Made by a program: the position numbers and the translations under genes. A stretch of 64,000 nucleotides of DNA, from the NCBI GenBank assembly GCA_038889235.1, contig JAWAHN010000001.1, positions 631,459 through 695,458 on the forward strand, read 5' to 3'. This stretch comes from Candidatus Jordarchaeales archaeon. GTDB taxonomy: Archaea > Asgardarchaeota > Jordiarchaeia > Jordiarchaeales > Freyrarchaeaceae. Shown here in pieces: positions 17,877-63,671 of the stretch. Within the stretch, counting starts at the first letter, position 1. Each line of letters begins with the position of its first letter. The notes beneath the pieces were generated by a model. The model searched no databases and was not told the origin of the DNA. It saw only the letters and a list, made by a program, of their open reading frames with translations.

Positions 17877-18407
17877 ATGGCGAGAAGACAATCCGAAAAA
17901 GTGTCGGAGGATTCCTGGTTGAAGTATGTTAAAGTGGTCTTTTTGGGGTTGCCCTCGGTTGGCAAGACGAGCATTATAACGCTTTTGAGTGAAAACAGAG
18001 TTGTTAGAAGCTACGATCCAACGATAGGCGTCGATTTTGGTTCAGTGTCCATCGGCGAGTGTGAGGTCTCATTGTGGGATCTTGCAGGACAAGAGAGGTT
18101 TCAATTTCTCTGGGATGACTTCATAAAGGGCGCGAAGATCATTTTCGCGGTTAGTGATTCAACGCCGAAGAATGTTTTGCAAACGAAAAAGATAATAGAT
18201 GAGATTAGAGGGAAAACTGATGCTCTTATAATAGGTATAGCTAACAAGCAAGACCTTCCGGGAGCTATGAAGCCAAGTCAAGTTGAGAGTATACTTAAGG
18301 TTCCAACTTACGGTATGGTCGCAATAGACCCTAGGAAGAGAGTTAAAATGTACAGTATTTTGAGGCAAGCTTTAGAGCAGACTGTTCTAGCTGTGGCGAG
18401 CAATTAG
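17877..18407 (+). CDS. Ras-superfamily small GTPase, Rab-like
   Basis: 176 aa; P-loop GLPSVGKTS, switch I TIGVDF, switch II WDLAGQERF, NKQD. Confidence 0.8.
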   Translation: MARRQSEKVSEDSWLKYVKVVFLGLPSVGKTSIITLLSENRVVRSYDPTIGVDFGSVSIGECEVSLWDLAGQERFQFLWDDFIKGAKIIFAVSDSTPKNVLQTKKIIDEIRGKTDALIIGIANKQDLPGAMKPSQVESILKVPTYGMVAIDPRKRVKMYSILRQALEQTVLAVASN

Positions 18408-43577: not shown

Positions 43578-45365
43578 ATGCTGTTCTCTAAAATAGCAGA
43601 TTTTTATGAGAAAATAGAGGCTACGACAAAACGGTTGGAGATGATAGACCTACTTGTTAACCTGTTCCTAGAGACGCCAAAAGAGATAATTGACAAGGTA
43701 GTTTACCTGACGACGGGGAGAATTTACCCGATGTTTGTTCCAATAGAGCTTGGTATTTCTGAAAAGTTGGCCATGCGAAGCATCGCTATGATTGCTGGAG
43801 TGAGTATTAAGGATGTTGAAAACACCTTTAAAGAGGTTGGTGACATAGGCCTTGTTGCCGAAATATTCACGAAAAAGAAGAAGCAAGCCTCCCTATTCCG
43901 GACGCCTTTAACAGTCGAGGTGGTTTATGAAACACTAGATAAGATAGCGAAGGAAAGTGGGGAGGGGTCGGTAGAAGCCAAAATAAGACATCTTTCGAAG
44001 CTGCTACTTGACGGTACACCTAAAGAAGCCAAGTATATTGCGAGGATGGTTGTAGGAAAGCTCCGCCTTGGGATAGCAGATTATACAATTCTTGACGCGT
44101 TGGCCGTGGCTTTCACAGGGTCTAGAGAAAACAGACCCATCCTTGAGAGGGCTTACAACATCACATCTGACTTAGGACTAATAGCTAAGGTGGTTGCAAC
44201 AGAGGGGCTTAACTCTGTTAAAAACTTCAAGATCACCGTTGGAAGACCTATAAGGATGATGCTTGCTCAAAGAGCGACATCTCCCGAAGAAATTCTTGAG
44301 CGCATGGGTGGCCGTTGCTCAGCCGAATATAAACTTGACGGGGAACGAATGCAAATACACAAGGACGGAAGTAGAGTGGAAATATTTTCTAGGAGACTTG
44401 AGAACATAACGTACCAGTACCCAGACGTAGTTAAACTTGTCATAGAAAACCTGAAAGCAGAGAGAGCGATAGTTGAAGGAGAATGCGTGGCCATAAATCC
44501 TGATACCGGGGAAATGCTTCCCTTCCAGCAATTGATGAGAAGGAAAAGAGTGTACGGCATAGAGGAAGCCGTAGAGAAGTACCCTGCTATGATCTATCTT
44601 TTCGACGCGCTTTTGGTAGAAGATGAAGATTTAACGGATAAACCCTACCCTGAACGCAGAAAGAGACTTGCGGAAATAGTTCGAGAAAACGAGCGTATAA
44701 AGTTAGTTAGAGCAGAGCTGCTCGACAGCGTGGAAGCCATAGAGAAATTTTTTGACGCTGCAGTCGAGGAAGGATGCGAAGGTATAATGGCGAAATCCAT
44801 CCAATCCGACTCCATATATGAGGCTGGAAGTAGAGGATACAAGTGGCTCAAGTTCAAACGAGAGTACAAGACAGAGATGACCGACACTATAGATGCAGTT
44901 ATAGTTGGAGCGTTTATGGGTAAAGGCAAACGGGCAGGATCCTATGGAGCGCTGCTCGTCGCGGTTTACGACGAGGATTCAGACATGTTCAAAACCATCT
45001 GCAAAGTTGGTACAGGCTTTAGTGATGAAGATTTAGAAAGACTGCCGGAGATTCTTAGGCCTTACCAGATACCACACAAACACCCGAGAGTAGATTCAAA
45101 GCTAAAGGCAGACGTATGGTTCACTCCAGCCAAAGTTATCGAGATTATTGGGGCTGAATTAACAATAAGCCAAGTTCATACATGTGCCTTGGGATACGCT
45201 AAGAAAGACAGCGGGATAGCAGTTAGGTTCCCAAGATTTACTGGTAGGTGGAGGGATGACAAGGGACCAGAAGAAGCTACAACTGTTAAAGAAGTAATCG
45301 AGATGTACGAACAACAGAAAAAAGTGAAGGTGGCTGAAACAGTAGAAGAAGACACGGCTAAGTAA
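43578..45365 (+). CDS. lig: ATP-dependent DNA ligase
   Basis: Adenylation domain (KxDG context: EYKLDGER), OB domain; conserved N-terminus MLFSKIADFYEKIEATTKRLE begins at ATG 43578; the track start 43377 is an upstream extension overlapping the divergent gene. Confidence 0.9.
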   Translation: MLFSKIADFYEKIEATTKRLEMIDLLVNLFLETPKEIIDKVVYLTTGRIYPMFVPIELGISEKLAMRSIAMIAGVSIKDVENTFKEVGDIGLVAEIFTKKKKQASLFRTPLTVEVVYETLDKIAKESGEGSVEAKIRHLSKLLLDGTPKEAKYIARMVVGKLRLGIADYTILDALAVAFTGSRENRPILERAYNITSDLGLIAKVVATEGLNSVKNFKITVGRPIRMMLAQRATSPEEILERMGGRCSAEYKLDGERMQIHKDGSRVEIFSRRLENITYQYPDVVKLVIENLKAERAIVEGECVAINPDTGEMLPFQQLMRRKRVYGIEEAVEKYPAMIYLFDALLVEDEDLTDKPYPERRKRLAEIVRENERIKLVRAELLDSVEAIEKFFDAAVEEGCEGIMAKSIQSDSIYEAGSRGYKWLKFKREYKTEMTDTIDAVIVGAFMGKGKRAGSYGALLVAVYDEDSDMFKTICKVGTGFSDEDLERLPEILRPYQIPHKHPRVDSKLKADVWFTPAKVIEIIGAELTISQVHTCALGYAKKDSGIAVRFPRFTGRWRDDKGPEEATTVKEVIEMYEQQKKVKVAETVEEDTAK

Positions 45366-45477
45366 AATAATATGCTAGTGCAGAAGAGCGCATTAAAAAG
45401 CTTTGCAAAAAATTTTAATAACATCAAAAACATAGGTAGCTTGAAATGCGTTTTTCTTTAAGAAATTGTGAAAGAGG

Positions 45478-45882
45478 TTGTTAAAATTGTCTGTCGAGCA
45501 AATAATTTCCGTCATAAATGAGCTTCTTTCAACAAACGAAAACATAACTGCAGCCGCAGTTATCACAAATGACGGGCGTATAATATACCAGACAAACAAC
45601 TGGGACGTTAGTGTTGACGCGCCGAGTCTAATTGCTTCTTGGAGGGAAAAGGCGCCAGCCATATCGGTTCAGGGTATAAAGTACTCTGTTCTTCAAACAA
45701 CTGAGGAGAGACTCGTTGCGACAAACGTTAGCGGACTCGGACATATAATACTTGCAACAATACAGAGACGCGGCTTTCTAATGGTTTACGTGACACCTCA
45801 AGGGGATGCTGGTGGGAGCTACGTGGACGTCAGTCGGGCAGCAATGAAGCTCGCTCCAATTTTGCAAGCGATGGGTTACTGA
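45478..45882 (+). CDS. Roadblock/LC7-domain protein (MglB-like)
   Basis: 134 aa; alpha-beta pattern (AAAVITNDGRIIYQ...KYSVLQTTEERLVATNVSGLGHIILAT) characteristic of Roadblock/LC7. Confidence 0.65.
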   Translation: MLKLSVEQIISVINELLSTNENITAAAVITNDGRIIYQTNNWDVSVDAPSLIASWREKAPAISVQGIKYSVLQTTEERLVATNVSGLGHIILATIQRRGFLMVYVTPQGDAGGSYVDVSRAAMKLAPILQAMGY

Positions 45883-45913
45883 ATACTTTAAATCAAAGAT
45901 CCTCCCCCTCTTT

Positions 45914-46603
45914 TTAGTAAATCCTCCTGACGAGACGTACTTCTTCGCTCTCTAAGTCATATTCTACGAGGTTGGCTTTGGCCAGGTCGTAAATGCTTTT
46001 CAGTATGATTGCTGGCTGGAAACCAGCGGCCTCAGTTATTTCTTTCCGTTTCATGATGTTTTTATCTCCATGCAACAAGTATAGTACTTTGGCGTGAGGC
46101 TGTCCACCGAAAACTTCCTCGAGAAGAGTGATATATATTGAAAGGAGGTGCCTTACGTCCTCGATTTCCTCTTTTTCCTTAGTAATTTCTCGGTACATCT
46201 TTGACAGCCTTGATAGCTGTTCCTTTATGTAGTTTAGCTCTTCTTCGAGCTTACGTTTTTCGTTCAACACACTGGAAAGCTCTTCGTCTTTTGCAGCTAA
46301 CTTTTCCTTAGTCTCTTTCAGAGAGCGTTCCAAGCTCATTATTTGTTCCTTTAGAGAAACTATTTCTCTCTGAGAAGATTCAAGGGTGGACTTTAACTTT
46401 TCAGTTTCTTCTTCCTTGCTCTTCAGTAAAAAGATGAGTTCATTCATTTTTTCATCTTTTTCCTTAATCTCCCTTTCTTTGGCTGCAAGGGCATTTGCCA
46501 TTCCCGTGACTTCATCGACGATAAGTTCCATTCTATTATAGAGGTCTTTTATCGCCGCACAGATACTACTTACTTTTTCCACAGCGTTAGTGTTCACATT
46601 CAC
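45914..46603 (-). CDS. Coiled-coil protein with C-terminal winged-helix-like domain
   Basis: 229 aa; long heptad-rich E/K/L segment followed by KVLYLLHGDKNIMKRKEITEAAGFQPAIILKSIYDLAKANLVEY. Confidence 0.5.
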   Translation of the reverse strand: MNVNTNAVEKVSSICAAIKDLYNRMELIVDEVTGMANALAAKEREIKEKDEKMNELIFLLKSKEEETEKLKSTLESSQREIVSLKEQIMSLERSLKETKEKLAAKDEELSSVLNEKRKLEEELNYIKEQLSRLSKMYREITKEKEEIEDVRHLLSIYITLLEEVFGGQPHAKVLYLLHGDKNIMKRKEITEAAGFQPAIILKSIYDLAKANLVEYDLESEEVRLVRRIY

Positions 46604-46694
46604 TCCTCCCCGCTAGCGGATCACCACAAAAACTTGGAAGAAATTCAACTATTATTTCAACTCGTAATTTTCAGCTTTCGATAATTTTTAAAGG

Positions 46695-47636
46695 GTGTCT
46701 GTTATTTATAAGGTTGATCAGAGAGAATTCATTCAGGCGGTTGGAGGCTCAATGGAGGAGGACCTAAGGAATGTTATAGAAAGGGTGATCGGAGAAAGTG
46801 TTCAAAGAAGCATAGAACCATTTATACGCGCTCTTTTGAAGAGCATAAAGATAATCAGAGATGAAGTCGCTTCGATAGGAGTGGAGCTGGAGACGCGATC
46901 CAAGGACCTTTTGAGCCAATTAAACGGATTATCGAACCTGCTTCGGACAATTTACGAGCATGTGGAAAGAATAGAGAAGACGCAGGGTGAAGCGGAGCAA
47001 CGGCTACTTATAACTCCCCCCTCTGAGCAAAGAAATGTAGAGAGTCTTGTAGAAAGCAAAGTTAGAAGCTTGATTGAACCTCTAGGTAAAACTCTTCAGA
47101 AGATCGTGGATCAACAAATTACGCTGATAAATACCATCGAGCAAATTGTCGGAAAAATGGAGAGCATCGAAAGGAGCATGTTAGAACTTAAGACGAGTGC
47201 ACCTAAAATCCCAATTCAGCTGGGTTCAGAGGTGGATGAGGAAGAGAGGGCAGAAACAACTTCAGACGTTTTTAAAAGTGAAGTTTTCTCTAAATTAGAA
47301 GGTGCAGTTAAGACGCTTCTGGAAAAAACCGAGGAAGCAGAAAAGGTCAAAGAGACGGAGGAAGCAGAAGGGGGACCAGAATTTGAAGAACATTTAACAG
47401 AAACCGAAAAGCTAGAGCTTCAATCCGCTTCAAGAGAAGCCGCTGGTAGCGAGGAATTAACTATTGACAAATTACAGGAGAGGGTGGCAGAAATAGATCG
47501 GGAAATAACTGACTTAACTTTTGATAGAATGAGAGGGCTTCTAAGTGAAGAAGAATATCAAGAGAAAAAGGAGACATTAATAAAGGAAAAGGAGATTTTG
47601 AAAAAGAAAATCGAGGAGCTGACTCTTAAGATGTAA
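46695..47636 (+). CDS. Coiled-coil protein, function unknown
   Basis: 313 aa; extended predicted coiled-coil and acidic segments; first gene of a three-gene co-directional unit. Confidence 0.5.
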   Translation: MSVIYKVDQREFIQAVGGSMEEDLRNVIERVIGESVQRSIEPFIRALLKSIKIIRDEVASIGVELETRSKDLLSQLNGLSNLLRTIYEHVERIEKTQGEAEQRLLITPPSEQRNVESLVESKVRSLIEPLGKTLQKIVDQQITLINTIEQIVGKMESIERSMLELKTSAPKIPIQLGSEVDEEERAETTSDVFKSEVFSKLEGAVKTLLEKTEEAEKVKETEEAEGGPEFEEHLTETEKLELQSASREAAGSEELTIDKLQERVAEIDREITDLTFDRMRGLLSEEEYQEKKETLIKEKEILKKKIEELTLKM

Positions 47637-47679
47637 AGGAAGAGAAACCTAAGATTTACGGGTGGAGGAATGCTGAAGT

Positions 47680-47985
47680 TTGGAAAAGACTGTGGATATA
47701 TGGGAATATTACCCAACCTATTCCGTCGATAAGAGCGGTAAAAAAGTGTTGATTATACGGGCTCTTACTTCCTTAAGCGATCTCAGCAAATTCGATATTC
47801 AAAATTATGAACAAATCAAGAAGTTGTGGTTTTCGGTTCTTTTAAGCATCCCTCTTCTAAAGAAGAAAAATTTTGACGACTCCTTACTCGAGGTGAAGAT
47901 TGAGGGGGAAACTGTTGAAGTTCGTGTAACAATCCCTCAAGATTATATTGAAGATGGTTCGACTCTTGGGGGAGAAAAGAGTTGA
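47680..47985 (+). CDS. Small hypothetical protein
   Basis: 101 aa; sits between two genes of the same unit and overlaps the next start by 4 bp. Confidence 0.4.
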   Translation: MEKTVDIWEYYPTYSVDKSGKKVLIIRALTSLSDLSKFDIQNYEQIKKLWFSVLLSIPLLKKKNFDDSLLEVKIEGETVEVRVTIPQDYIEDGSTLGGEKS

Positions 47986-48602
47986 TCCACGCTATCTACA
48001 TTATAGATGGAAGAAGTGGGGTACACTTCCTTTCCCAGAGATATGGAGAAATAGAACTGGATGAAGCGCTAATTGCTGGATTTTTAACAGCTATCAAGCA
48101 TTTTTCATGTGAATTGAAAAAGAGTAAAAGAGAGGGGGAGACTGATGCAGTTCAAGAAATAGAAATGAAAACGTACAAAATTGTTATTCATGCTTCTGAG
48201 GAAAACATCCTTGTAGCTGCAATAACCGACTGGGAGGATTCCACGCAGCTTGTTAGGAAAGCTTTGACGGAAGTTGCTTCAAGCTTTTCAGGAAGGTATA
48301 GATCAATTTTGAATAATTGGAACGGAGATTCATCATTATTTTCAGACTTTGTTCCCGAACTCGACAGGATTTTAATGGAGGGGCGTATTGGGGAAGCGCT
48401 TAAAAAACCGAAACTTAAAGGGAAACTTATGAAGAGTATGGTTAGAATGGGATTTATAAGTGAGGACGCGTTTAGGATAAGCGAGCTATGTGACGGAAGA
48501 CACACAAAAGAAGCGATTGCCGACAAGCTTAAACTCCCCTTAGAAAAAGTTATTGAAGCAATAGGGGAGCTTGAGAAAAAGAACCTCCTCGAGTGGGTTT
48601 AA
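47982..48602 (+). CDS. Longin/Roadblock-like domain protein with C-terminal winged helix
   Basis: 206 aa; N-terminal MIHAIYIIDGRSGVHFLSQ...KIVIHASEENILVAAITD (SNARE-like/longin-type pattern), C-terminal HTH-like RISELCDGRHTKEAIADKLKLPLEKVIEAIGELEKKNLL. Confidence 0.5.
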   Translation: MIHAIYIIDGRSGVHFLSQRYGEIELDEALIAGFLTAIKHFSCELKKSKREGETDAVQEIEMKTYKIVIHASEENILVAAITDWEDSTQLVRKALTEVASSFSGRYRSILNNWNGDSSLFSDFVPELDRILMEGRIGEALKKPKLKGKLMKSMVRMGFISEDAFRISELCDGRHTKEAIADKLKLPLEKVIEAIGELEKKNLLEWV

Positions 48603-48631
48603 AGGTTTCCTGAACTGAAAGATGACTATTT

Positions 48632-49489
48632 TTACTCCGCTTCGTATTGTACTCCGGAAGTTATCAAGATTAACGACAAAACAATTATAACGGGTGAAAT
48701 GAAGATAACTATTTCTCCGAGAAGGGATTTTATGATAGCGGCTTGCATAGTTCGACCCACATAGTAACACATGAAGCCGACCCCTAACAAGGAAGCCCTC
48801 CTTCTTATCACACCCGCGCTATTCAATGCCACGTAAAAGAATAGTAATGGGATAAACAGCGAGTAAATAGACGAGAGAACGTAGTTTATGGCAAAGTATA
48901 CTGCTCCACTTGGTTGGTAGACTATAGCAAGCCTTTGAGGGAACCAGGGACTAAATGGGTCGAAGCCAAGCCAGAAAAGTACTCCTTGAGTTTCTGAGCC
49001 GGGCTGGGGTACTAGGAAGCGGACTTCATCTATAACGTAATTGAAAAGAAGCTCTCCCGGTAAGAGAAGTAAAGCAAGTCCGGCAAGCAACGGGGGAATA
49101 TGAAGTGTACGTCTCAGCCACTTATTTTCAAGCCACACGTAAGCGATGCCCAGGGATATGAATGAAAGACTGAGCCATTCCCAAAAAGATGCCAGCCGCC
49201 AATCCCAAGTGTTACATATGAACACAGCTTCAACAAATGGAGTATATGCACTGGACAAGACGGGAGCCAAAAAAATTACTGCAGGTTTGTCGTAGAAATC
49301 GTATAAAAGAAAGAAAACTCTACCTACTGCAAGCGTCAGGAAGAATAACGAGAGCGATAAATTGAAAAAGTTTCGGTTCTTTCTCCACTTGAAGAGAAAA
49401 AGGTACAAGAAAAGGAGGACATAATAACCCACTATAGTAAACCAAAGTCCTATGGCGAAAGTATATGGAACATATTGTGACGGGATCAA
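48632..49489 (-). CDS. Polytopic integral membrane protein, function unknown
   Basis: 285 aa; several hydrophobic helices, aromatic-rich. Confidence 0.55.
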   Translation of the reverse strand: MIPSQYVPYTFAIGLWFTIVGYYVLLFLYLFLFKWRKNRNFFNLSLSLFFLTLAVGRVFFLLYDFYDKPAVIFLAPVLSSAYTPFVEAVFICNTWDWRLASFWEWLSLSFISLGIAYVWLENKWLRRTLHIPPLLAGLALLLLPGELLFNYVIDEVRFLVPQPGSETQGVLFWLGFDPFSPWFPQRLAIVYQPSGAVYFAINYVLSSIYSLFIPLLFFYVALNSAGVIRRRASLLGVGFMCYYVGRTMQAAIIKSLLGEIVIFISPVIIVLSLILITSGVQYEAE

Positions 49490-50439: not shown

Positions 50440-51723
50440 CTAGAAAATTCTGGCCTCCAAATCCATTACTACCTCTTGGAAGGCTCGGTATAACACGTCT
50501 AAAAAAGAGGCCAATACTCTTCCTATCTTGTCTTTTAGTGGAGCCTTTTCGGGATAACCTAAGTCGTAAAGTGGTTTGTTAAGAAGTGCTTCCAATCCTA
50601 CAGGTATAGATGCTTTCGCCATAAGCGATAAGTTAGAAAGGACTCTCACACCGTGCTTTTCTAGGTATTTTTCTGGTTCGAGAAGGCTCTCTCTTTTGAG
50701 GTCATAAATCCGTTTTATCGTTGAATCAAGGAGAAGCTGTAGCTTTCGGAGCTCATCTGTAATATCGCTACTTAGGATGCTGCCATGTTCACTTAAGAAG
50801 CGATCAATTTCGGAAGAAATAGAGAGGATAGGACGCTGCCAAAGTATGTTTAAAAGCTTGTCAAACACCACCATATTTTTCCTGCTGCCAGTTTTTTCTT
50901 TGCTGATCCTCGCTTTCAGATCTCTAATCTTCTTATCTAGGGAAATTATCATACTTGAAATACTTTCTAGGTCCATTTTAAACCCGCTTTTAAGTTCCTC
51001 GTGTTCTATGAGATAGAACCTGTGTATTTCTTGTTCAAGAATGAAACCCATTTTCTCCGAGAAGTTTCTCACTCTGTGCAACAAAAAATCTAGGAATATG
51101 TTTAAATAAAGCTTCCTTAGAAGACCCGCTAACCTCTCCCATATCTCCTTAAACATTACTATCCTTTCCTTTTTCAAGAGGATCAAAGCGTGATCTCCGG
51201 GTTTTAAGTAAAAACAATAGTCTTTGAGCGCCTCTTTAAGACTGTTTTTTTCCCCCAACTTGTTTATGAAGATGGATGGATAACCGTGAGCAGCCGTGTT
51301 GACGTAGTAGTAAAGCCGTTTACCTTCATTCGTGGGGTAGCTAAAAACTATAATGCGCTCCAAATCTCCTGGATGGTGGGCTTTTCCGGGAGCTATAGTG
51401 AAACCCTTACTGTACGACAGCATTACGTAGATTGAATACCTTTCTTCCCCCTCAGTTAGTCCTGGAAACCTTAACAGGAAACCTAATTTTTCTAATACGC
51501 TTCTTTTATCTTTAGCCCATTCAGATGCTAATAAGTAGAAGCTACGCTTCTCTACATCTCCAACTATAACTCTGAAGAGCCCTAAAGTATCTCGTTTCTC
51601 GACATATTCATGTAATTTGTCAAAAAGCTTGCTTAACTCTCTCATGCTTCTTTTAAGCACAAATTCACGACTTTTCTCTTCATATATCGCAACTCTTTTC
51701 GGGAGGTAAACTTCGACTTCCAA
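50440..51723 (-). CDS. Hypothetical protein (427 aa)
   Basis: Long uninterrupted ORF; no family recognised. Confidence 0.5.
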   Translation of the reverse strand: MEVEVYLPKRVAIYEEKSREFVLKRSMRELSKLFDKLHEYVEKRDTLGLFRVIVGDVEKRSFYLLASEWAKDKRSVLEKLGFLLRFPGLTEGEERYSIYVMLSYSKGFTIAPGKAHHPGDLERIIVFSYPTNEGKRLYYYVNTAAHGYPSIFINKLGEKNSLKEALKDYCFYLKPGDHALILLKKERIVMFKEIWERLAGLLRKLYLNIFLDFLLHRVRNFSEKMGFILEQEIHRFYLIEHEELKSGFKMDLESISSMIISLDKKIRDLKARISKEKTGSRKNMVVFDKLLNILWQRPILSISSEIDRFLSEHGSILSSDITDELRKLQLLLDSTIKRIYDLKRESLLEPEKYLEKHGVRVLSNLSLMAKASIPVGLEALLNKPLYDLGYPEKAPLKDKIGRVLASFLDVLYRAFQEVVMDLEARIF

Positions 51724-52718: not shown

Positions 52719-53297
52719 TTGACAGGGACTAAGATATGTAGCGTTTTGTTTGAAACACCAGGCCCTGCGAACACGGATGAAACATTGAAAATAGCTAAAG
52801 AATTTGCGGATAACAATCAAGTGAAGGATATAGTTATTGCTTCTACTACAGGGAATACTGCTCTCAAGGCGCTTAGATTGTTTTCTCCGGACAAGTTTAA
52901 CTTGGTGGTGGTTACTCATAGTTACGGTTTTGTAAAACCAGGAGAGCAAGAGTTTGATAGTGAAGTTAGAGCGGAGCTTGAAAAGAAAGGTGTTAAGGTT
53001 TTGACGTGCGTGCACGCTCTTTCTGGGGTTGAAAGAGCATTTAGGAACAAACTTGGCGTCTGGATGCCGATCGACCTAATTGCTAGAACACTTAGATCCA
53101 TACTGGGCGACGGATTTAAGGTTTGCGTGGAGATTGCTCTCATGGCTGCCGATGCAGGACTTATTCCAATAGATAGGGACGTAATCGCAATAGGAGGGAC
53201 AGGGCGGGGGGCGGATACTGCAGTGGTTCTTAGGCCTTCAAACACGTCCAACTTCTTAGATTTACGTGTCAAGGCCATTCTTTGTAAGCCCATCTGA
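52719..53297 (+). CDS. Conserved hypothetical protein (alpha/beta fold)
   Basis: 192 aa; no confident family assignment. Confidence 0.45.
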   Translation: MTGTKICSVLFETPGPANTDETLKIAKEFADNNQVKDIVIASTTGNTALKALRLFSPDKFNLVVVTHSYGFVKPGEQEFDSEVRAELEKKGVKVLTCVHALSGVERAFRNKLGVWMPIDLIARTLRSILGDGFKVCVEIALMAADAGLIPIDRDVIAIGGTGRGADTAVVLRPSNTSNFLDLRVKAILCKPI

Positions 53298-54113
53298 TAA
53301 ATACTTTTTTAGCGGTCTTTTGCACGAGGGACACTTATCTTTTTGTTTAAAGTAATCGTTTAAATGCTTTTCACATGCCTTATTAAAACAAAAGGGACAT
53401 GTGAAATGCTTAGAGTCTGGCGGCAGTTTATCTCCGCACACCATGCATTTTTCTTCTTCAACCTCACTGCGCAATGCCCTTTCTATCCATTCAAACTCTT
53501 CTGGTGAGCCGATTTCGTACACGCCGTTCTCTATTAACATGTCTCTAACGTAAATTCTGTACTCTTGAGGTGCGTCTTCAGAAACCAAGAGAAGTTTCTT
53601 TGCTTCTTCAAGAAGAGAGATCCCATTCAATCTTGACGAAACCATTTTCCACACATATCTTAAGATCAATGGATTCCTTACGAGGGAACCATAGAGAAAA
53701 TTCGCGCACTCGTAGCTTCGCCCCTCGTTAAAATAGTAGTCTACGGCTTCCTTAAAGAGGCCAACTCTGAGCAGTTGTAGAACCGGGTGACCGACCCCTT
53801 CTTTTTCGTATTTGTCTAAGAGTTTTTCGGCCTGCCTCGTTCTAATGACAGAGTAGAGGGCGCAGGATAACGTGCATAAAAGGAAAAATATGCTTAATGT
53901 TGGAAAAACTGTAGGGTATTGTGTTGGGGCCACGTTTAAACTAATTAGCAACATATTGTAAGCCAACCACGCGAAAAAAGATTCGTAAGTATTACGAGTG
54001 AAGTATAGATAGATATCTATCGCACAATAAGCTGCAATGCTAAAAGACAACAAGAGGAGAATTGAAAGTCTGCGCTTCAACTTGGACTTAGCGAGTTCCG
54101 TCAAAACAATCAC
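53262..54113 (-). CDS. Membrane protein with C-terminal zinc-ribbon domain
   Basis: 283 aa; N-terminal transmembrane helices, C-terminal CMVCGDKLPPDSKHFTCPFCFNKACEKH...CPSCKRP. Confidence 0.5.
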   Translation of the reverse strand: MIVLTELAKSKLKRRLSILLLLSFSIAAYCAIDIYLYFTRNTYESFFAWLAYNMLLISLNVAPTQYPTVFPTLSIFFLLCTLSCALYSVIRTRQAEKLLDKYEKEGVGHPVLQLLRVGLFKEAVDYYFNEGRSYECANFLYGSLVRNPLILRYVWKMVSSRLNGISLLEEAKKLLLVSEDAPQEYRIYVRDMLIENGVYEIGSPEEFEWIERALRSEVEEEKCMVCGDKLPPDSKHFTCPFCFNKACEKHLNDYFKQKDKCPSCKRPLKKYLSDGLTKNGLDT

Positions 54114-57570: not shown

Positions 57571-58455
57571 ATGAAAGGTAGGTATGTAAAATACGCAAAC
57601 AAGGTTTTAGAGGTGTTCTGCAATGGAAAAGACGCATTGATATTTGCTCCCCTACTGAAGTTACTTGTGGAGCACATGGAAGAAGTATGTGAAATGTGCA
57701 TGGAAAACAAAATGGTCTGCACACTGCGGCCTATGTGTCCTGAAAGAAGATGGCTTAGCTTTCTCATAATGATAGGAGCACAAAAAGAGGATCTTCCAGC
57801 TTTTTGTTTCAAAACCAGGATTAATGAAGTTAAAGCGATAATAGAGAGGACTAGCCATATTCATTTCAGCGATGCCATACTTCAAATAGACGTTTTTCTC
57901 AATATTCTTTCTGGCGGAAGGTCACGCTTAATAGAGCCTTTCAGAAGCGGTGATCTTGAAAGGTTTATTGAGGGGCTTGAGGCAGAGTTTAAACGCCACA
58001 CAAAAAACATTTCGTTGCTTGTTAATGATAGATGTATCTTCATCTTGGTGGACGAAAACCTAGTAATGATGTATTTGGATAAAGGGTTTGTCTTGATAAA
58101 TCCTGAGGAGAAAGTGTTTGATTCCGCAGAAGAATTAGTTAATTTAGTGCTTGCTTTTAAAAATCATTATGATGTACCAATTCAAGTGGAGGAAGAATTT
58201 GCCGGGTTCCCTCGAATTACGGTAAGAATTCCTCATAAACCTTATGTAGAAGATTTAGTGAACAAATTCGTTGAAAAAATGGTTAAAAACGCCGGACACG
58301 TAAATTTCTTCCCTGAAAATGATAGCTTAATGTTAGAGGTAGAATTTGACTTAGTCAATTCCCCTCTTAAGTTTAGGAAGGTTCTTCACGTATTAAACGA
58401 TATTAAATCACTCTACCAGGAAGTGATTGGTAAAGGCGAGGGGGGTAAGACTTGA
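57571..58455 (+). CDS. Hypothetical Cys-rich protein (294 aa)
   Basis: N-terminal CEMCMENKMVCTLRPMCPE cluster; stop overlaps start of the giant coiled-coil gene by 4 bp. Confidence 0.5.
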   Translation: MKGRYVKYANKVLEVFCNGKDALIFAPLLKLLVEHMEEVCEMCMENKMVCTLRPMCPERRWLSFLIMIGAQKEDLPAFCFKTRINEVKAIIERTSHIHFSDAILQIDVFLNILSGGRSRLIEPFRSGDLERFIEGLEAEFKRHTKNISLLVNDRCIFILVDENLVMMYLDKGFVLINPEEKVFDSAEELVNLVLAFKNHYDVPIQVEEEFAGFPRITVRIPHKPYVEDLVNKFVEKMVKNAGHVNFFPENDSLMLEVEFDLVNSPLKFRKVLHVLNDIKSLYQEVIGKGEGGKT

Positions 58456-61400
58456 CCGAGAAGGTTGTGTCACTTATTGCTAGTAGGCTTGGACTTAAAG
58501 ATAATGAAGCCAGGGTCTATGAAATACTTCTTTCTTATAGGGTTCTTACAGCAGGAGAGATATCGTACTACACGTCTTTTCCAATATCCGAAGTTAATGC
58601 AATTCTCCACTCTCTCATAAACAAGGGGTTAGTTATTCGTATACCGGGAGTTGTCGAAAAATACATGCTCATTACTCCTTTTAAGGTGTTTTTCGAGACT
58701 GCTGGTGAGACTTCGAAAGTTGCTAGAGGAGTAGAGGAGAGACTGGAGAAGTACTCGGAAGTTATTAAAACAGACTTGGGAAGCTTCATTGAAAGTTTTA
58801 AGTCCAAACTAGAAAGTTTTGTGAGCAGAGAAACGCAGAATATAAAAAGTAAAGCCGGTGAGACTAGTGCTCTCTTGGAAGCGCTGACTACACAAGAAAA
58901 GGCGAAATTGGGTGACGCAGCAAAAGACGTAGATTCTTGCTTCGAAGTAGAGTTAGAAACACATAGAAAACTTAGTGAAGATTTATTGGCCAACTTTAGA
59001 GGTGAAGTAGAAAAGAAAATAGAAGATTCCTTAAAAAAAGTAGAGGGCTCTGTCAAACAGAGCGCGGTAAAAGCGTTGAGCGCCTTTACATCCACTATGG
59101 GTGACTTGAGCGCTCAGTTAGGGAGTTTTGAAAAGAAGATATTAAACGAGATTACCGTGATATCGAAGGAAGTTGACTCGCTTCCGGAAAAAATTGCTGA
59201 AAAAATAACTGATGCCAAGAAAGAGTTCGATACTAAAGTAAGAAACGTTTTAGAGAGTTCCAAAGAGCAAACTTCGAGTGTTGTAAACGCGTTAAAAAAT
59301 GAGATTAACGAGCATGTGAAGGCTGTGGAAAGGCTTACGTTTGAAAGCATTAGAAGGGACGCCTTAAAGTTGAGGGAGCATGTTGAAAAAATAGGACGAG
59401 AGCTAGAGACGTTTATAAATGATTCGACGTCAAATACCGCGAAAAGCGTTTCATCCATTTACACGGCGGTTTCAAAACCTCTTCGATCCTTAAAGGTAGA
59501 GTATGAAAGAGAGATGCAAAAAATTTTAGAACAGATGGGTAGACTCACGGATAGCAGCGTTCGCCGTTTTTCTTCGATTATTGATGAAACGAAAACTAAA
59601 GTGGCTGAGCAGATTAAGTCATACGTTGAACTCCAAAAGGATGTTTTAGACGAATTTAAGTCAAAAATAGATGGACATATATTATCCAGTATTAAAGAGT
59701 TCAGTACGGCTTCTTCTTCGATAAAGGAGCGTTTCAAAGAAGTTGTAATGGAGGAGAAAAGTACTACAAGTAAAGTTTTTGAGTGGACAAGAGAGGTGGT
59801 TAAGTCACTTATTCTGGAGCACACTGACGTGGTAAAGAGCACTTTAAGGGAGATTGAAAAGAAACTTCACGACGCATTGATCATGGAAAGTGAAAGTGAG
59901 GAAAAAGATTACTCCAAATTCAAAGACACATTCTCTTCCATGCTGGAAGTTTCTAAGCGAGAAATACTGGAAGTAGCAAAAGTAACGTCTAGAAGCGTGC
60001 TCAGAGAGATACATACTCAGACGGATGTAATTATAAGTGAACTGAGAAAGTTAAGGGAGAAAGTTTTCGAAAATATTAAGGAAGAATTGAGGAAAATCAA
60101 GTGGGAGGCTGAGGAGGCAAGGAGGAGCGTTGAAAGGCTTCTATCTCAACGTGTCGCATACATGGAGGAACAAGCTGAGCTCATGAGGCAACGATTAGAC
60201 GAAACAATCAAAAAGAAGCTCGAGGAGATAAACTCCAATTTTGGAGTTATAAGGGCAGGATTTCTTGAAGTGATGGACGGAATATTGGCTAGGTTTGCCG
60301 AAATTGTGGAAGAAACCAAGAACAGTTTTTCGCTATCAATTAATTCTCAATTCTCTTTCTTTAAGGAGAGCCTCGAGAAACTTGACCTAGCGCTCACAGA
60401 AGAACTGAAACAGCAAGTGGAAGCCGCCAAAGCGGAGGCCAACGAGTTTCTCTTAAGTTTTTCGAAAGAGTTGGAGGGAAGAATCCTAAAGGTGGAGGAG
60501 CTCACGAAGCAAATCATCGATAACATAGAGGGCACATTTAAAAAGCAGGAGAAGATTAGTAGGAACCTTAGAAACACAGTTTCGTCTTACTTTGTCCAAG
60601 AGTTGAGACGATACATAGATGCGTTCTCTAATACTACCCTACTGCTTAACGAGCGTTTGACTTCGCTCTTAGATGCGAGAATAAAAACCCTGGAAAGACT
60701 TAGAAGCAGGCTCGAAAAGGAAATTTCATCTTTAATTGCTAGCAAAGAGGAGCTAATAGAGGAGAAAAATGCCAGTTTAAGAGACACAGTGGATGCGCAC
60801 ATTTCGGAGAGATACAAAGAGTATACAGAGTTGCTGGAAAACACTATTAGGGAAATTGAAAAGATGCTTTACGAGCATGTAGAGCGATTCAAAGGTCACA
60901 TGGAGGAGGTTTCAAGGAAGCTGGCAGAAACCGTCAGGGAAACTCTGGGAAAGATATCTAAGATTTCCGATAGTAGCACAAGGGAGTTGGCGGCTTTGCT
61001 GAGCGTTGAACAAGAAACCGTTGTTAACGAAACGAAAAATTTGATTGAGGAAGCAAATAAGACATTTGAACAATATGTTAGAGCTCTGAGAAATAGCATT
61101 GCAACTTGTCTAGATAATTTAGTGGAAGAAGTGGCGAAACAGATAGAGAGCCTGAAAGATAAAAGGGATTATCTTGCGACAGCATTGAAAGGCAGTATGA
61201 TAGCGAGTATTGAACAATTTGAAACTACACTTAAAGAATTAGAGAGCGATTTAACTTTAGGCATGGAAGGTGAATTAAAGAAAGTTGATTCATTGACTGC
61301 ACAGCTAGAAGTAAGGTTGCAATCTTTGCTTGATAAGCTGAAAAGTGACGGATGGGCATATTCGGATTACTTACTAGAAGAAAGCGCAAATATACTTAAG

Positions 61401-62378
61401 AGAAGCGCTGAAAGTGTGAGAACTATTCTGGAGTCTGCAAGTCGAAAAATTACTGAAATCATAGTGGAAGACAAAAAGGTTTTGGGTTCGAAGACTGATG
61501 AAGCAAGAAACTTGATTGAAGGAATAACGAAGGAGACAATAGAAGAAATTGAGAGCGCGGCGCGTAGAATACATGACGAGATAACTATTCTCGTAAGTAG
61601 GTATCGTGAAGAGACGGAAAAAATTATGCATGAAACCAGGAAGCGCATAGTTAGTGAGTTTAAAAGATGCGTTGAAAAACAAGAGAAGGACGTTGAGGAT
61701 GTTAGCCGCAACATAACGGAAATGCTTGCCCAGTTAGTGGAGAGCTACGAAAAAATGCTGAAGGAGTTCAGCAACGATTTGTCGGTTCATGTAAGCGAGT
61801 TCTACAAGAGAGTGGTTGAGAACGTAAGAGGAACAACGGATACTCTATGTGAAAGCATCAGAAAGTTGCTAGAGGAGTTAAAGTATACTGAGGAAATTAT
61901 GCAACTAACGTGGAGCGAAGTAACAAAAGCGCCTTTGGCTTTAGAAAAAACCTCGTTCGTAGTGACACGAGAAGCGGCGCGCGTACGAGTAAAGGACATG
62001 GTGGCACGGGCTAAAAAGTCACTAGTAGTTGTGGCTCCTAACCTGGAGGAGCTCCCGGTGCAGGAAATACTAGAATTGAAGCCTTCGGTAAGAGTATATC
62101 TGTTTACAGATTTCGAATTACCAAGGCAAATTGACACGTTGAGGAGTTTGGTGAGTAAAAGTGGTGTGCGTTTGTGGAGAAGAGAAGAAAAGGAATTTTT
62201 CATATGTCTGCGAGACGATGAAGAAATGTTTATCGCTCCAGTGTCAAAAGAGGAGCCTTTAGTAGCTGTGGTGAGTGAAGAACAAAGTTACATCGAAGCG
62301 TATAAACGTTCACTGCTACCTCTCATTAGGTCAACGTCCAAAGAAGTGAGATTGGAAGATATACAGAGCGCCAAGTGA
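58452..62378 (+). CDS. Giant coiled-coil protein with N-terminal TrmB-like winged helix and TrmB-like C-terminal domain
   Basis: 1308 aa single ORF; N-terminal RVYEILLSYRVLTAGEISYYTSFPISEVNAILHSLINKGLV (wHTH), roughly 1000 aa of low-complexity E/K/L-rich heptad sequence, C-terminal globular domain (SLVVVAPNLEELPVQEILELKPSVRVYLFTD). Confidence 0.6.
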   Translation: MTEKVVSLIASRLGLKDNEARVYEILLSYRVLTAGEISYYTSFPISEVNAILHSLINKGLVIRIPGVVEKYMLITPFKVFFETAGETSKVARGVEERLEKYSEVIKTDLGSFIESFKSKLESFVSRETQNIKSKAGETSALLEALTTQEKAKLGDAAKDVDSCFEVELETHRKLSEDLLANFRGEVEKKIEDSLKKVEGSVKQSAVKALSAFTSTMGDLSAQLGSFEKKILNEITVISKEVDSLPEKIAEKITDAKKEFDTKVRNVLESSKEQTSSVVNALKNEINEHVKAVERLTFESIRRDALKLREHVEKIGRELETFINDSTSNTAKSVSSIYTAVSKPLRSLKVEYEREMQKILEQMGRLTDSSVRRFSSIIDETKTKVAEQIKSYVELQKDVLDEFKSKIDGHILSSIKEFSTASSSIKERFKEVVMEEKSTTSKVFEWTREVVKSLILEHTDVVKSTLREIEKKLHDALIMESESEEKDYSKFKDTFSSMLEVSKREILEVAKVTSRSVLREIHTQTDVIISELRKLREKVFENIKEELRKIKWEAEEARRSVERLLSQRVAYMEEQAELMRQRLDETIKKKLEEINSNFGVIRAGFLEVMDGILARFAEIVEETKNSFSLSINSQFSFFKESLEKLDLALTEELKQQVEAAKAEANEFLLSFSKELEGRILKVEELTKQIIDNIEGTFKKQEKISRNLRNTVSSYFVQELRRYIDAFSNTTLLLNERLTSLLDARIKTLERLRSRLEKEISSLIASKEELIEEKNASLRDTVDAHISERYKEYTELLENTIREIEKMLYEHVERFKGHMEEVSRKLAETVRETLGKISKISDSSTRELAALLSVEQETVVNETKNLIEEANKTFEQYVRALRNSIATCLDNLVEEVAKQIESLKDKRDYLATALKGSMIASIEQFETTLKELESDLTLGMEGELKKVDSLTAQLEVRLQSLLDKLKSDGWAYSDYLLEESANILKRSAESVRTILESASRKITEIIVEDKKVLGSKTDEARNLIEGITKETIEEIESAARRIHDEITILVSRYREETEKIMHETRKRIVSEFKRCVEKQEKDVEDVSRNITEMLAQLVESYEKMLKEFSNDLSVHVSEFYKRVVENVRGTTDTLCESIRKLLEELKYTEEIMQLTWSEVTKAPLALEKTSFVVTREAARVRVKDMVARAKKSLVVVAPNLEELPVQEILELKPSVRVYLFTDFELPRQIDTLRSLVSKSGVRLWRREEKEFFICLRDDEEMFIAPVSKEEPLVAVVSEEQSYIEAYKRSLLPLIRSTSKEVRLEDIQSAK

Positions 62379-63580: not shown

Positions 63581-63671
63581 TGGTGGGCGGGCCAGGATTT
63601 GAACCTGGGACCTCCACGGTGTCAACTTCGCCCTTTCTGTGTGGCGTCATAACCAGCTAGACTACCCGCCC
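63581..63671 (-). tRNA. tRNA-Val (anticodon GAC), one intron, CCA encoded
   Basis: Minus strand: acceptor GGGCGGG/CCCGCCC, disc A, CCA; T-arm CCAGG-TTCAAAT-CCTGG; anticodon stem CCAC[14-nt insert]G / CGTGG with loop TTGACAC. Confidence 0.65.

Follow-up and report, generated by a model that had tools for sequence, protein, structure and literature searches.

Theories that derive eukaryotic membrane trafficking and nutrient signaling from Asgard archaea give a central place to small GTPases and to longin and Roadblock platforms. The eukaryotic longins include the σ/μ-adaptin and ζ/δ-COP type (for example, AP-2 σ) and the SNARE longins Sec22b and VAMP7, and in the GATOR1 subunits NPRL2 and NPRL3 a longin domain is combined with a C-terminal winged-helix region. 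Among the Asgard archaea, longins have been described in general terms, and an "NPRL2-like" longin family has been noted in Asgard/Thorarchaeota (Liu et al., bioRxiv 10.1101/2020.10.19.343400). Because Asgard longin genes are usually unlinked to partner genes, however, the clients of these proteins cannot be guessed (PMC10933270). Here we describe a locus in a 64-kb window (64,000 nucleotides of contig JAWAHN010000001.1; the whole stretch of DNA analyzed) from a Candidatus Jordarchaeales archaeon, in which a gene for a small longin protein, gene E, lies tail to tail with a gene for a seven-helix membrane protein, gene F. The two would constitute a specific and testable longin/membrane-protein partnership, present in Thorarchaeota-type, Jordarchaeales-type and Hodarchaeota genomes. 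The literature, as far as our incomplete coverage extends, does not describe an Asgard gene pair of this kind, which is not proof of novelty.

Taken alone, the E protein matches no curated Pfam or NCBIfam family above threshold, including the Pfam longin families, and no sequence in the PDB. In an AlphaFold2 (AF2) model built on six homologs (predicted local distance difference test score, pLDDT, 78.5), residues 1-133 are arranged as ββαβββαα, with strands at 2-9, 15-20, 56-61, 65-71 and 76-83 and helices at 28-43, 88-105 and 117-133. This is the longin order of elements, with no N-terminal helix and with two helices at the C-terminal end, and the nearest structural neighbors of the predicted domain are bona fide longins. 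A family profile of 27 sequences likewise matches AP-2 σ (E-value 1.1e-5) and AP-1 σ (1e-3), and the match of E itself to NPRL2 is non-significant (0.043). The first-pass annotation of this DNA had proposed an N-terminus of longin or Roadblock type, and topology, structural neighbors and profile together identify it as a longin. The eukaryotic longins are among the closest known counterparts of E. Unlike them, E stands alone as a prokaryotic protein, carries a winged helix at its C-terminus, belongs to no heterotetrameric coat adaptor or SNARE, and scores below every Pfam longin threshold.

The relatives of E extend this picture. An exhaustive profile search recovers 1786 of them at an E-value of 1e-3 or less, many of which are 200-220 aa long and share the same two-domain layout. 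Some exceed the Pfam cut-offs for longin families (Clat_adaptor_s at 25.2 bits versus 22.5, Sybindin at 26.7 bits versus 25), and the Pfam assignments of 64 relatives comprise TrmB, HTH_47, HTH_24, Fuz_longin_1, Clat_adaptor_s, Sybindin, HTH_NPRL3 and DUF742. Matches to DUF742 are few and marginal (best E-value 9.7e-5), and E itself has none. Fusions to GTPase domains (Roc, Arf, Ras or RagA) also occur among the longin relatives, and further ones carry NPR2 or V4R.

Downstream of the longin domain, the model places three helices (161-167, 176-183 and 187-199) flanked by short strands at 143-145 and 203-205. The wing is truncated, the protein ending 3-7 residues past the putative recognition helix. 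Matches of E to helix-turn-helix (HTH) families lie below the cut-offs (HTH_24 at 18.9 bits and HTH_47 at 18.7 bits, both with E-values of ~1e-3), and a relative passes HTH_47 at 39 bits versus a cut-off of 27.1. The fusion of a longin to a winged helix proposed in the first-pass annotation is thus upheld in the form of a winged-helix-like domain. Overall, E is predicted from sequence and model to be a soluble, strongly acidic longin protein with a small C-terminal winged-helix-like domain. NPRL2 and NPRL3 share this combination, whereas E is just 206 aa long and lacks both their intermediate domain and the GP motif of GTPase-activating-type longins (PMC12290439).

The main rival to the pairing of E and F proposed below arises from this C-terminal domain. 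E could be a one-component transcription factor that detects a ligand or partner through its longin domain and regulates F or other genes through DNA binding by its winged HTH (wHTH), so that the adjacency of E and F would reflect a regulator-target relationship. The families nearest to the C-terminal domain are indeed DNA-binding wHTHs (TrmB, HTH_24/AsnC, MarR, GntR and DUF4423), its median net charge is mildly basic (+3, compared with -11 for the longin domain), and regulators often adjoin membrane-protein genes that are under their control. The putative recognition helix, however, has a median charge of -1 and is followed by no full wing, and the basic residues of E sit in the linker ahead of the HTH rather than within it. 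In addition, E and F are convergent instead of divergent and therefore share no promoter region, and we know of no longin that serves as the small-molecule sensor of a transcription factor. Winged-helix or HTH domains beside Roadblock-superfamily domains can also act off DNA, as does the DUF742 protein MfpC, which is a GEF, or guanine nucleotide exchange factor (PMC11343762), and some E relatives carry HTH_NPRL3 or NPR2 signatures. We consider it unlikely that E is a transcription factor, and the DNA-binding output suggested in the first-pass annotation is not favored, given the charge of the recognition helix and the truncated wing.

An intact E open reading frame (ORF) of 201-206 aa is present in the window and in 61%-identical orthologs. 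At three near-identical loci (L003, L004 and L005; 99.5% at the nucleotide level), a 1-bp deletion at gene position 153 splits E into ORFs of 59 and 145 aa, of which NCBI annotates just the 145-aa piece. Either an error in sequencing or assembly or a genuine frameshift at strain level could account for the split.

Gene F is without a match in Pfam or NCBIfam. Seven long helices emerge both from hydropathy and from an AF2 model (pLDDT 70.9, predicted TM-score 0.73), and the loop at 151-194, which is modeled with low confidence, is an insertion specific to Jordarchaeales-type sequences. Basic segments (KWRKNRN, NKWLRR and IRRRA) occupy the loops predicted to be cytoplasmic, from which the positive-inside rule suggests an N-out/C-in topology. 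Among the conserved motifs, two GR pairs lie within transmembrane (TM) helices TM2 and TM6, and TM2 ends with DFYA. A Foldseek search with the model returns G protein-coupled receptors (GPCRs) mixed with microbial rhodopsins (best E-value 0.013, TM-score at most 0.49), and the sequence shows neither homology to a GPCR family nor GPCR signature motifs. Judging from the model, F is probably a seven-helix bundle of the GPCR/rhodopsin class; homology is not claimed. An internal 3+1+3 duplication of the SWEET/PQ-loop kind, suggested by eye, was rejected when hhalign of the two halves gave a probability of 0.4%.

The linkage of E to F is conserved over a large evolutionary distance. When an F alignment was searched against 185,579 species genomes, 75 loci were recovered, all of them in Asgard metagenome-assembled genomes (MAGs). 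At 69 of these, the gene immediately downstream of F, encoded on the other strand, is an E ortholog; a median of 68 bp separates the two (range 10-130 bp; 29 bp in the window). Of the six loci without E, four are cut off by the contig end, one is interrupted by an N-gap, and L055 (Thorarchaeota) truly lacks the gene; at a further locus (L021), close to the end of its contig, a stop or frameshift splits E. The E sequences fall into Thorarchaeota-type (64 loci), Jordarchaeales-type (three) and Hodarchaeota (one) groups that are 35-38% identical to one another, and within ±6 kb the only genes common to all three of these deep Asgard groups are E and F. Genes A-D, which lie upstream of E in the window, and the flanking genes G and H occur at just the three Jordarchaeales-type loci among the 75. 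At two loci with distant E homologs (L006, in Hodarchaeota, and L007; 33-37% identity), tblastn located an F homolog directly downstream of E in convergent orientation and found no homolog of A-D. Metagenome contigs, in a scan that partly overlaps the MAG contigs, carry the pair at 29 of the 31 loci with at least 700 nt of downstream sequence, the exceptions being two divergent F lineages (L095 and L125). Starting instead from E, one further locus (L085) has an adjacent F (E-value 1e-37).

Related arrangements exist among other family members. A paralogous longin-wHTH gene (P0034, at L086) adjoins a gene for a distant F-like seven-transmembrane (7TM) protein, here in divergent orientation; hhalign aligns this protein with F over 210 columns at a probability of 92% (E-value 6.7e-7), whereas unrelated multi-TM controls score 0.2-0.3%. 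Among the 150 best E-family matches, longins are also fused to membrane segments. In P0074 and P0107, 5-6 TM segments predicted by a simple hydropathy count precede a C-terminal longin, and in P0092, P0102 and P0126 an N-terminal longin is followed by 3-4 TM helices. The TM domains of P0074 and P0107 show no detectable likeness to F (hhalign 0.2-0.8%), and they are unrelated to each other even though the longin parts of the two proteins are 41% identical. Pairing with a 7TM gene is not general to longin-wHTH paralogs, being absent at L087, L088 and L089.

It could be argued that the adjacency has no functional meaning, and that E and F act independently, being kept together for a reason such as a close tail-to-tail layout that resists disruption or a terminator used by both. 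The convergent orientation and the spacing of 10-130 bp fit such an explanation, as do the exceptions, which occur in both directions. Yet at 35-38% identity all other neighbors have been replaced, while the order, orientation and spacing of E and F are kept in at least three deep lineages. The paralogous pair at L086 is arranged in a different orientation, and longin-TM fusions exist as well. A purely passive association is, in our estimation, distinctly improbable.

The explanation that we prefer, and to which we give about an even chance, is that genes E and F work as a functional pair, in which F is a seven-helix membrane protein and E a cytoplasmic longin adaptor. This reading draws on the conserved adjacency, on the complementarity in charge between the acidic longin domain of E (median -11) and the basic loops of F that are predicted to be cytoplasmic, on the longin-TM fusions, and on analogy. 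As a sensor, a receptor or an anchor resembling a transporter, F would reside in the cytoplasmic membrane, and E would dock onto its cytoplasmic face. The longin domain, which is probably dimeric, would then provide a platform for recruiting or regulating another protein. Conceivably, by analogy with other longin/Roadblock platforms, this client is one of the many unlinked small GTPases of Asgard archaea, and the winged helix may serve protein-protein contacts rather than DNA binding. What the analysis shows is which domains the proteins contain, which folds are predicted and that the adjacency of the genes is conserved; from the adjacency, the charges, the fusions and the analogies we infer the physical complex, the GTPase client and the signaling role.

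Two known systems supply the analogy. Actinobacterial conservons (CvnA-D, MfpB-E) consist of a sensor kinase-like membrane protein, a Roadblock protein, a DUF742 HTH protein with GEF function, and a small GTPase. Like E and F, they bring together a membrane protein, a Roadblock-superfamily domain and a small HTH domain, and they set a precedent for an HTH that acts on a GTPase rather than on DNA (PMC11343762). In E, however, the longin and the HTH occupy one chain, F is a 7TM protein without a kinase domain, and no GTPase gene is linked. The second system is LYCHOS (GPR155), which binds GATOR1 at lysosomes (PMC11525196; bioRxiv 10.1101/2024.11.21.624772) and follows the same logic of a GPCR-like seven-helix protein joined to a cytoplasmic longin regulator. 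A bolder proposal, which we rate as quite improbable, is that E and F represent an ancient Asgard membrane-signaling or adaptor unit in which GPCR-like F is read out by σ-adaptin/NPRL-like E, and which is a prokaryotic forerunner of LYCHOS-GATOR1-like 7TM-longin systems or of the cargo-recognizing σ subunits of adaptors. If that were so, F and eukaryotic receptors of the GPCR type might share a genuine, though distant, relationship. If E and F do bind each other, the pair would offer an entry point to the function of Asgard longins at membranes, and a way to test whether the coupling of receptor-like seven-helix proteins to longin adaptors predates eukaryotes.

A number of considerations weigh against the functional pairing of E and F and the role proposed for it. 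The argument for binding is built from genome organization and sequence, and E and F, being convergent, are not co-transcribed. Most of the loci counted are of Thorarchaeota type, and these are syntenic with one another over a wider region, so that the independent observations amount to some 3-5 lineages and not to about 100. No partner is found nearby in the F lineages L095 and L125, at the Thorarchaeota locus L055 or in the E-like lineage L084, nor is there an F-like neighbor at the distant longin-wHTH paralog loci L087, L088 and L089. As regards a GTPase client, none of the Jordarchaeales, Hodarchaeota and Thorarchaeota loci examined has a GTPase gene within ±6 kb of E and F. Longins of the GTPase-activating protein (GAP) type, the FLCN/NPRL2/SMCR8 class, are marked by a GP motif just before β2 (PMC12290439), which E lacks: G13 is invariant, and all 69 orthologs have L, I, V or T, never P, at position 14. 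This class also has a conserved arginine finger next to the motif; in E, position 11 of the β1-β2 loop is D or E in 65 of the 69, and an arginine at some other position may take that role. The best HTH matches of E are, moreover, to families that bind DNA (TrmB, HTH_24 and MarR), and the model of F is of moderate confidence, with nothing returned by Foldseek at an E-value of 0.001 or less.

The first-pass annotation had grouped E with the four genes upstream of it, at 45478-48602, as a Roadblock/longin signaling or polarity module. All five ORFs are present with the coordinates and strands given there (Table 1), and the region 45300-48700 is ~99.5% identical to the Candidatus Jordarchaeales MAG GCA_038821275.1. 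This 3-kb stretch is not one functional module, however, but comprises a profilin gene, three lineage-specific genes and the longin-wHTH gene E. Apart from E, its content is ordinary, consisting of a profilin ortholog and lineage-specific coiled-coil genes.

Table 1. Genes of the E-F locus, in window coordinates
Gene	Position	Strand	Product
A	45478-45882	+	Asgard profilin, 134-aa ORF
B	45914-46603	-	Coiled coil (~residues 30-150) and conserved C-terminal domain of ~80 residues, probably a winged helix
C	46752-47636 (mechanical ORF from 46695)	+	Helical/coiled-coil protein with acidic middle and SHOCT-like C-terminal motif
D	47680-47985	+	101-aa orphan
E	47982-48602	+	Longin (1-~133), basic linker, compact winged-helix-like HTH (~143-206)
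F	48632-49489	-	285-aa seven-helix integral membrane protein; outside the interval of the first-pass annotation

Gene A, which had been taken for a Roadblock/LC7 protein, proves to encode a profilin. Profilin (PF00235) is its sole Pfam family at an E-value of 1 or less, with no match to Roadblock/Robl_LC7, and the alignment spans profile positions 6-127 of 127 at 24.9 bits, 0.1 below the cut-off of 25. In a phmmer search of PDB sequences, every significant match is a profilin (Odin 5ZZA, 9e-24; Loki profilin-1 5YED, 6e-20; Loki profilin-2 5ZZB, 8e-20; 7PBH, 3.6e-19), which rules out the Roadblock/LC7 assignment. The earlier reading is understandable because Roadblock, longin and profilin folds share a structural core (Tran et al., PMC10933270). 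Orthologs of A begin at TTG 45487, giving 131 aa. Compared with the Asgard profilins (Loki profilin-1 and -2, Odin and Heimdall), A is equal in size (131-134 aa) and can be aligned from end to end with E-values of 9e-24 to 4e-19, differing as a Jordarchaeales ortholog known from its sequence alone. By this measure A is an ordinary member of a family already known, and it would act as a regulator of actin polymerization. An Odinarchaeia contig (L087; 1739-2929 and 4001-4624) has an actin-family gene with a longin-wHTH paralog two genes downstream. The resemblance to the window, where 2 kb separate profilin from the longin-wHTH gene, may be a coincidence.

A Roadblock and longin GAP/GEF polarity module that follows the MglB paradigm and acts on the small GTPase encoded at 17877-18407 is very improbable. 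Some features are in keeping with it: E has the longin fold, GTPase domains are fused to some longin relatives, genes C, D and E run in one direction, the last two overlapping by 4 bp, and the Rab-like GTPase noted in the first-pass annotation is genuine (Rab/Arf-like; Arf at 75.8 bits, Rab6 at an E-value of 1.7e-17). The GTPase gene, however, is ~27 kb from the cluster in an unrelated context of replication and RNA-repair genes, its neighbors being archease, an OB-fold protein, PCNA and primase. In the Lokiarchaeon MK-D1, GTPases are generally encoded outside operons with Roadblock or longin genes (PMC10933270), and proximity within a 64-kb window is therefore uninformative. E is also without the GP motif and without a conserved arginine in the β1-β2 loop. 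Relative to MglA/MglB, E is nearer to longins than to Roadblocks, has no adjoining GTPase gene, and is accompanied by a profilin in place of the supposed Roadblock protein.

The genomic distribution of the five genes also argues against such a module. The order A-B-C-D-E is kept in Jordarchaeales-type genomes, as is everything else within ±8 kb, including genes for AMP phosphorylase, a DNA ligase and an AP_endonuc_2 protein, and the clustering of A-E in these genomes thus shows no functional link. A-E as a conserved unit was rejected because A, B, C and D, together with the flanking G and H, accompany E at Jordarchaeales-type loci only. Profilin A and gene B are neighbors unrelated to the E-F pair. 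A MAG labeled "Thermoproteota archaeon" (L011; JAPDJY010000034.1) contains the full Jordarchaeales-type block H-G-F-E-D-C-B-profilin and is probably mislabeled taxonomically. At another locus (L084; GCA_041305925.1), an E-like gene (P0011, 35% identical) has no F and neighbors RtcB, archease and an ADP-ribosylglycohydrolase; archease is also found beside the small GTPase gene of the window.

On present sequence evidence, genes B, C and D are known so far only from Jordarchaeales-type genomes. C, D and E share one direction, with a gap of 43 bp between C and D, and E begins with TTG preceded by the purine-rich, Shine-Dalgarno-like sequence GGGGGAG. The co-directional unit described in the first-pass annotation is therefore confirmed in this lineage, where C-D-E probably forms one operon, divergent from B, with C and D as accessory genes in Jordarchaeales-type genomes only. 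The AT-rich spacer of 148 bp between B and C-D-E (46603-46752) contains TATA-like TTTTTAAAGG and TTATTTATAAGG boxes, and B could be a local regulator of C-D-E. The start of C is probably ATG 46752, which is preceded by GGAGG and agrees with the N-termini of orthologs, giving 294 aa; C has a SHOCT match at residues 280-295 (E-value 0.0023) and is conserved at Jordarchaeales-type loci only. D has no Pfam, NCBIfam or PADLOC family and just three homologs in 5.8 billion proteins. A role for D as a mini-Roadblock or as a partner of the longin was discarded after the D profile gave no signal against the PDB or the E-family profile. A defense-system origin for B, C and D was likewise set aside, since nothing notable came from the PADLOC models apart from noise due to the coiled coil of B.

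The proposal of a coiled coil with a C-terminal winged helix in B held for its first part, the coiled coil being matched by many coiled-coil families. Its second part is backed by weak, sub-cut-off matches to TFIIE_alpha (E-values 0.01-0.016) and Fe_dep_repress (0.02-0.05), and the domain is probably a winged helix. An hhalign comparison of this region with the HTH of E is in register but non-significant (probability 2%). Residues 134-229 of B (~95 residues) are nearly invariant among four orthologs, and orthologs are restricted to loci L009-L011, L001 and L002. The combination of a winged helix with a long coiled coil recurs in this genome, in a 1308-aa protein encoded at 58452-62378 (+) that has an N-terminal winged helix of TrmB type (50.9 bits) and a very long, helical, apolipoprotein-like coiled coil.

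Elsewhere in the window, an ORF of 427 aa at 50440-51723 (-) has no Pfam, NCBIfam or PADLOC match and is conserved at Jordarchaeales-type loci, and another of 283 aa at 53262-54113 (-) has no Pfam match. Lastly, an 88-nt tRNA is detected by Rfam at 63584-63671 (-) with a score of 52.1 bits and is not reported by ARAGORN; the gene may contain an intron or be atypical for an archaeal tRNA in some other way.

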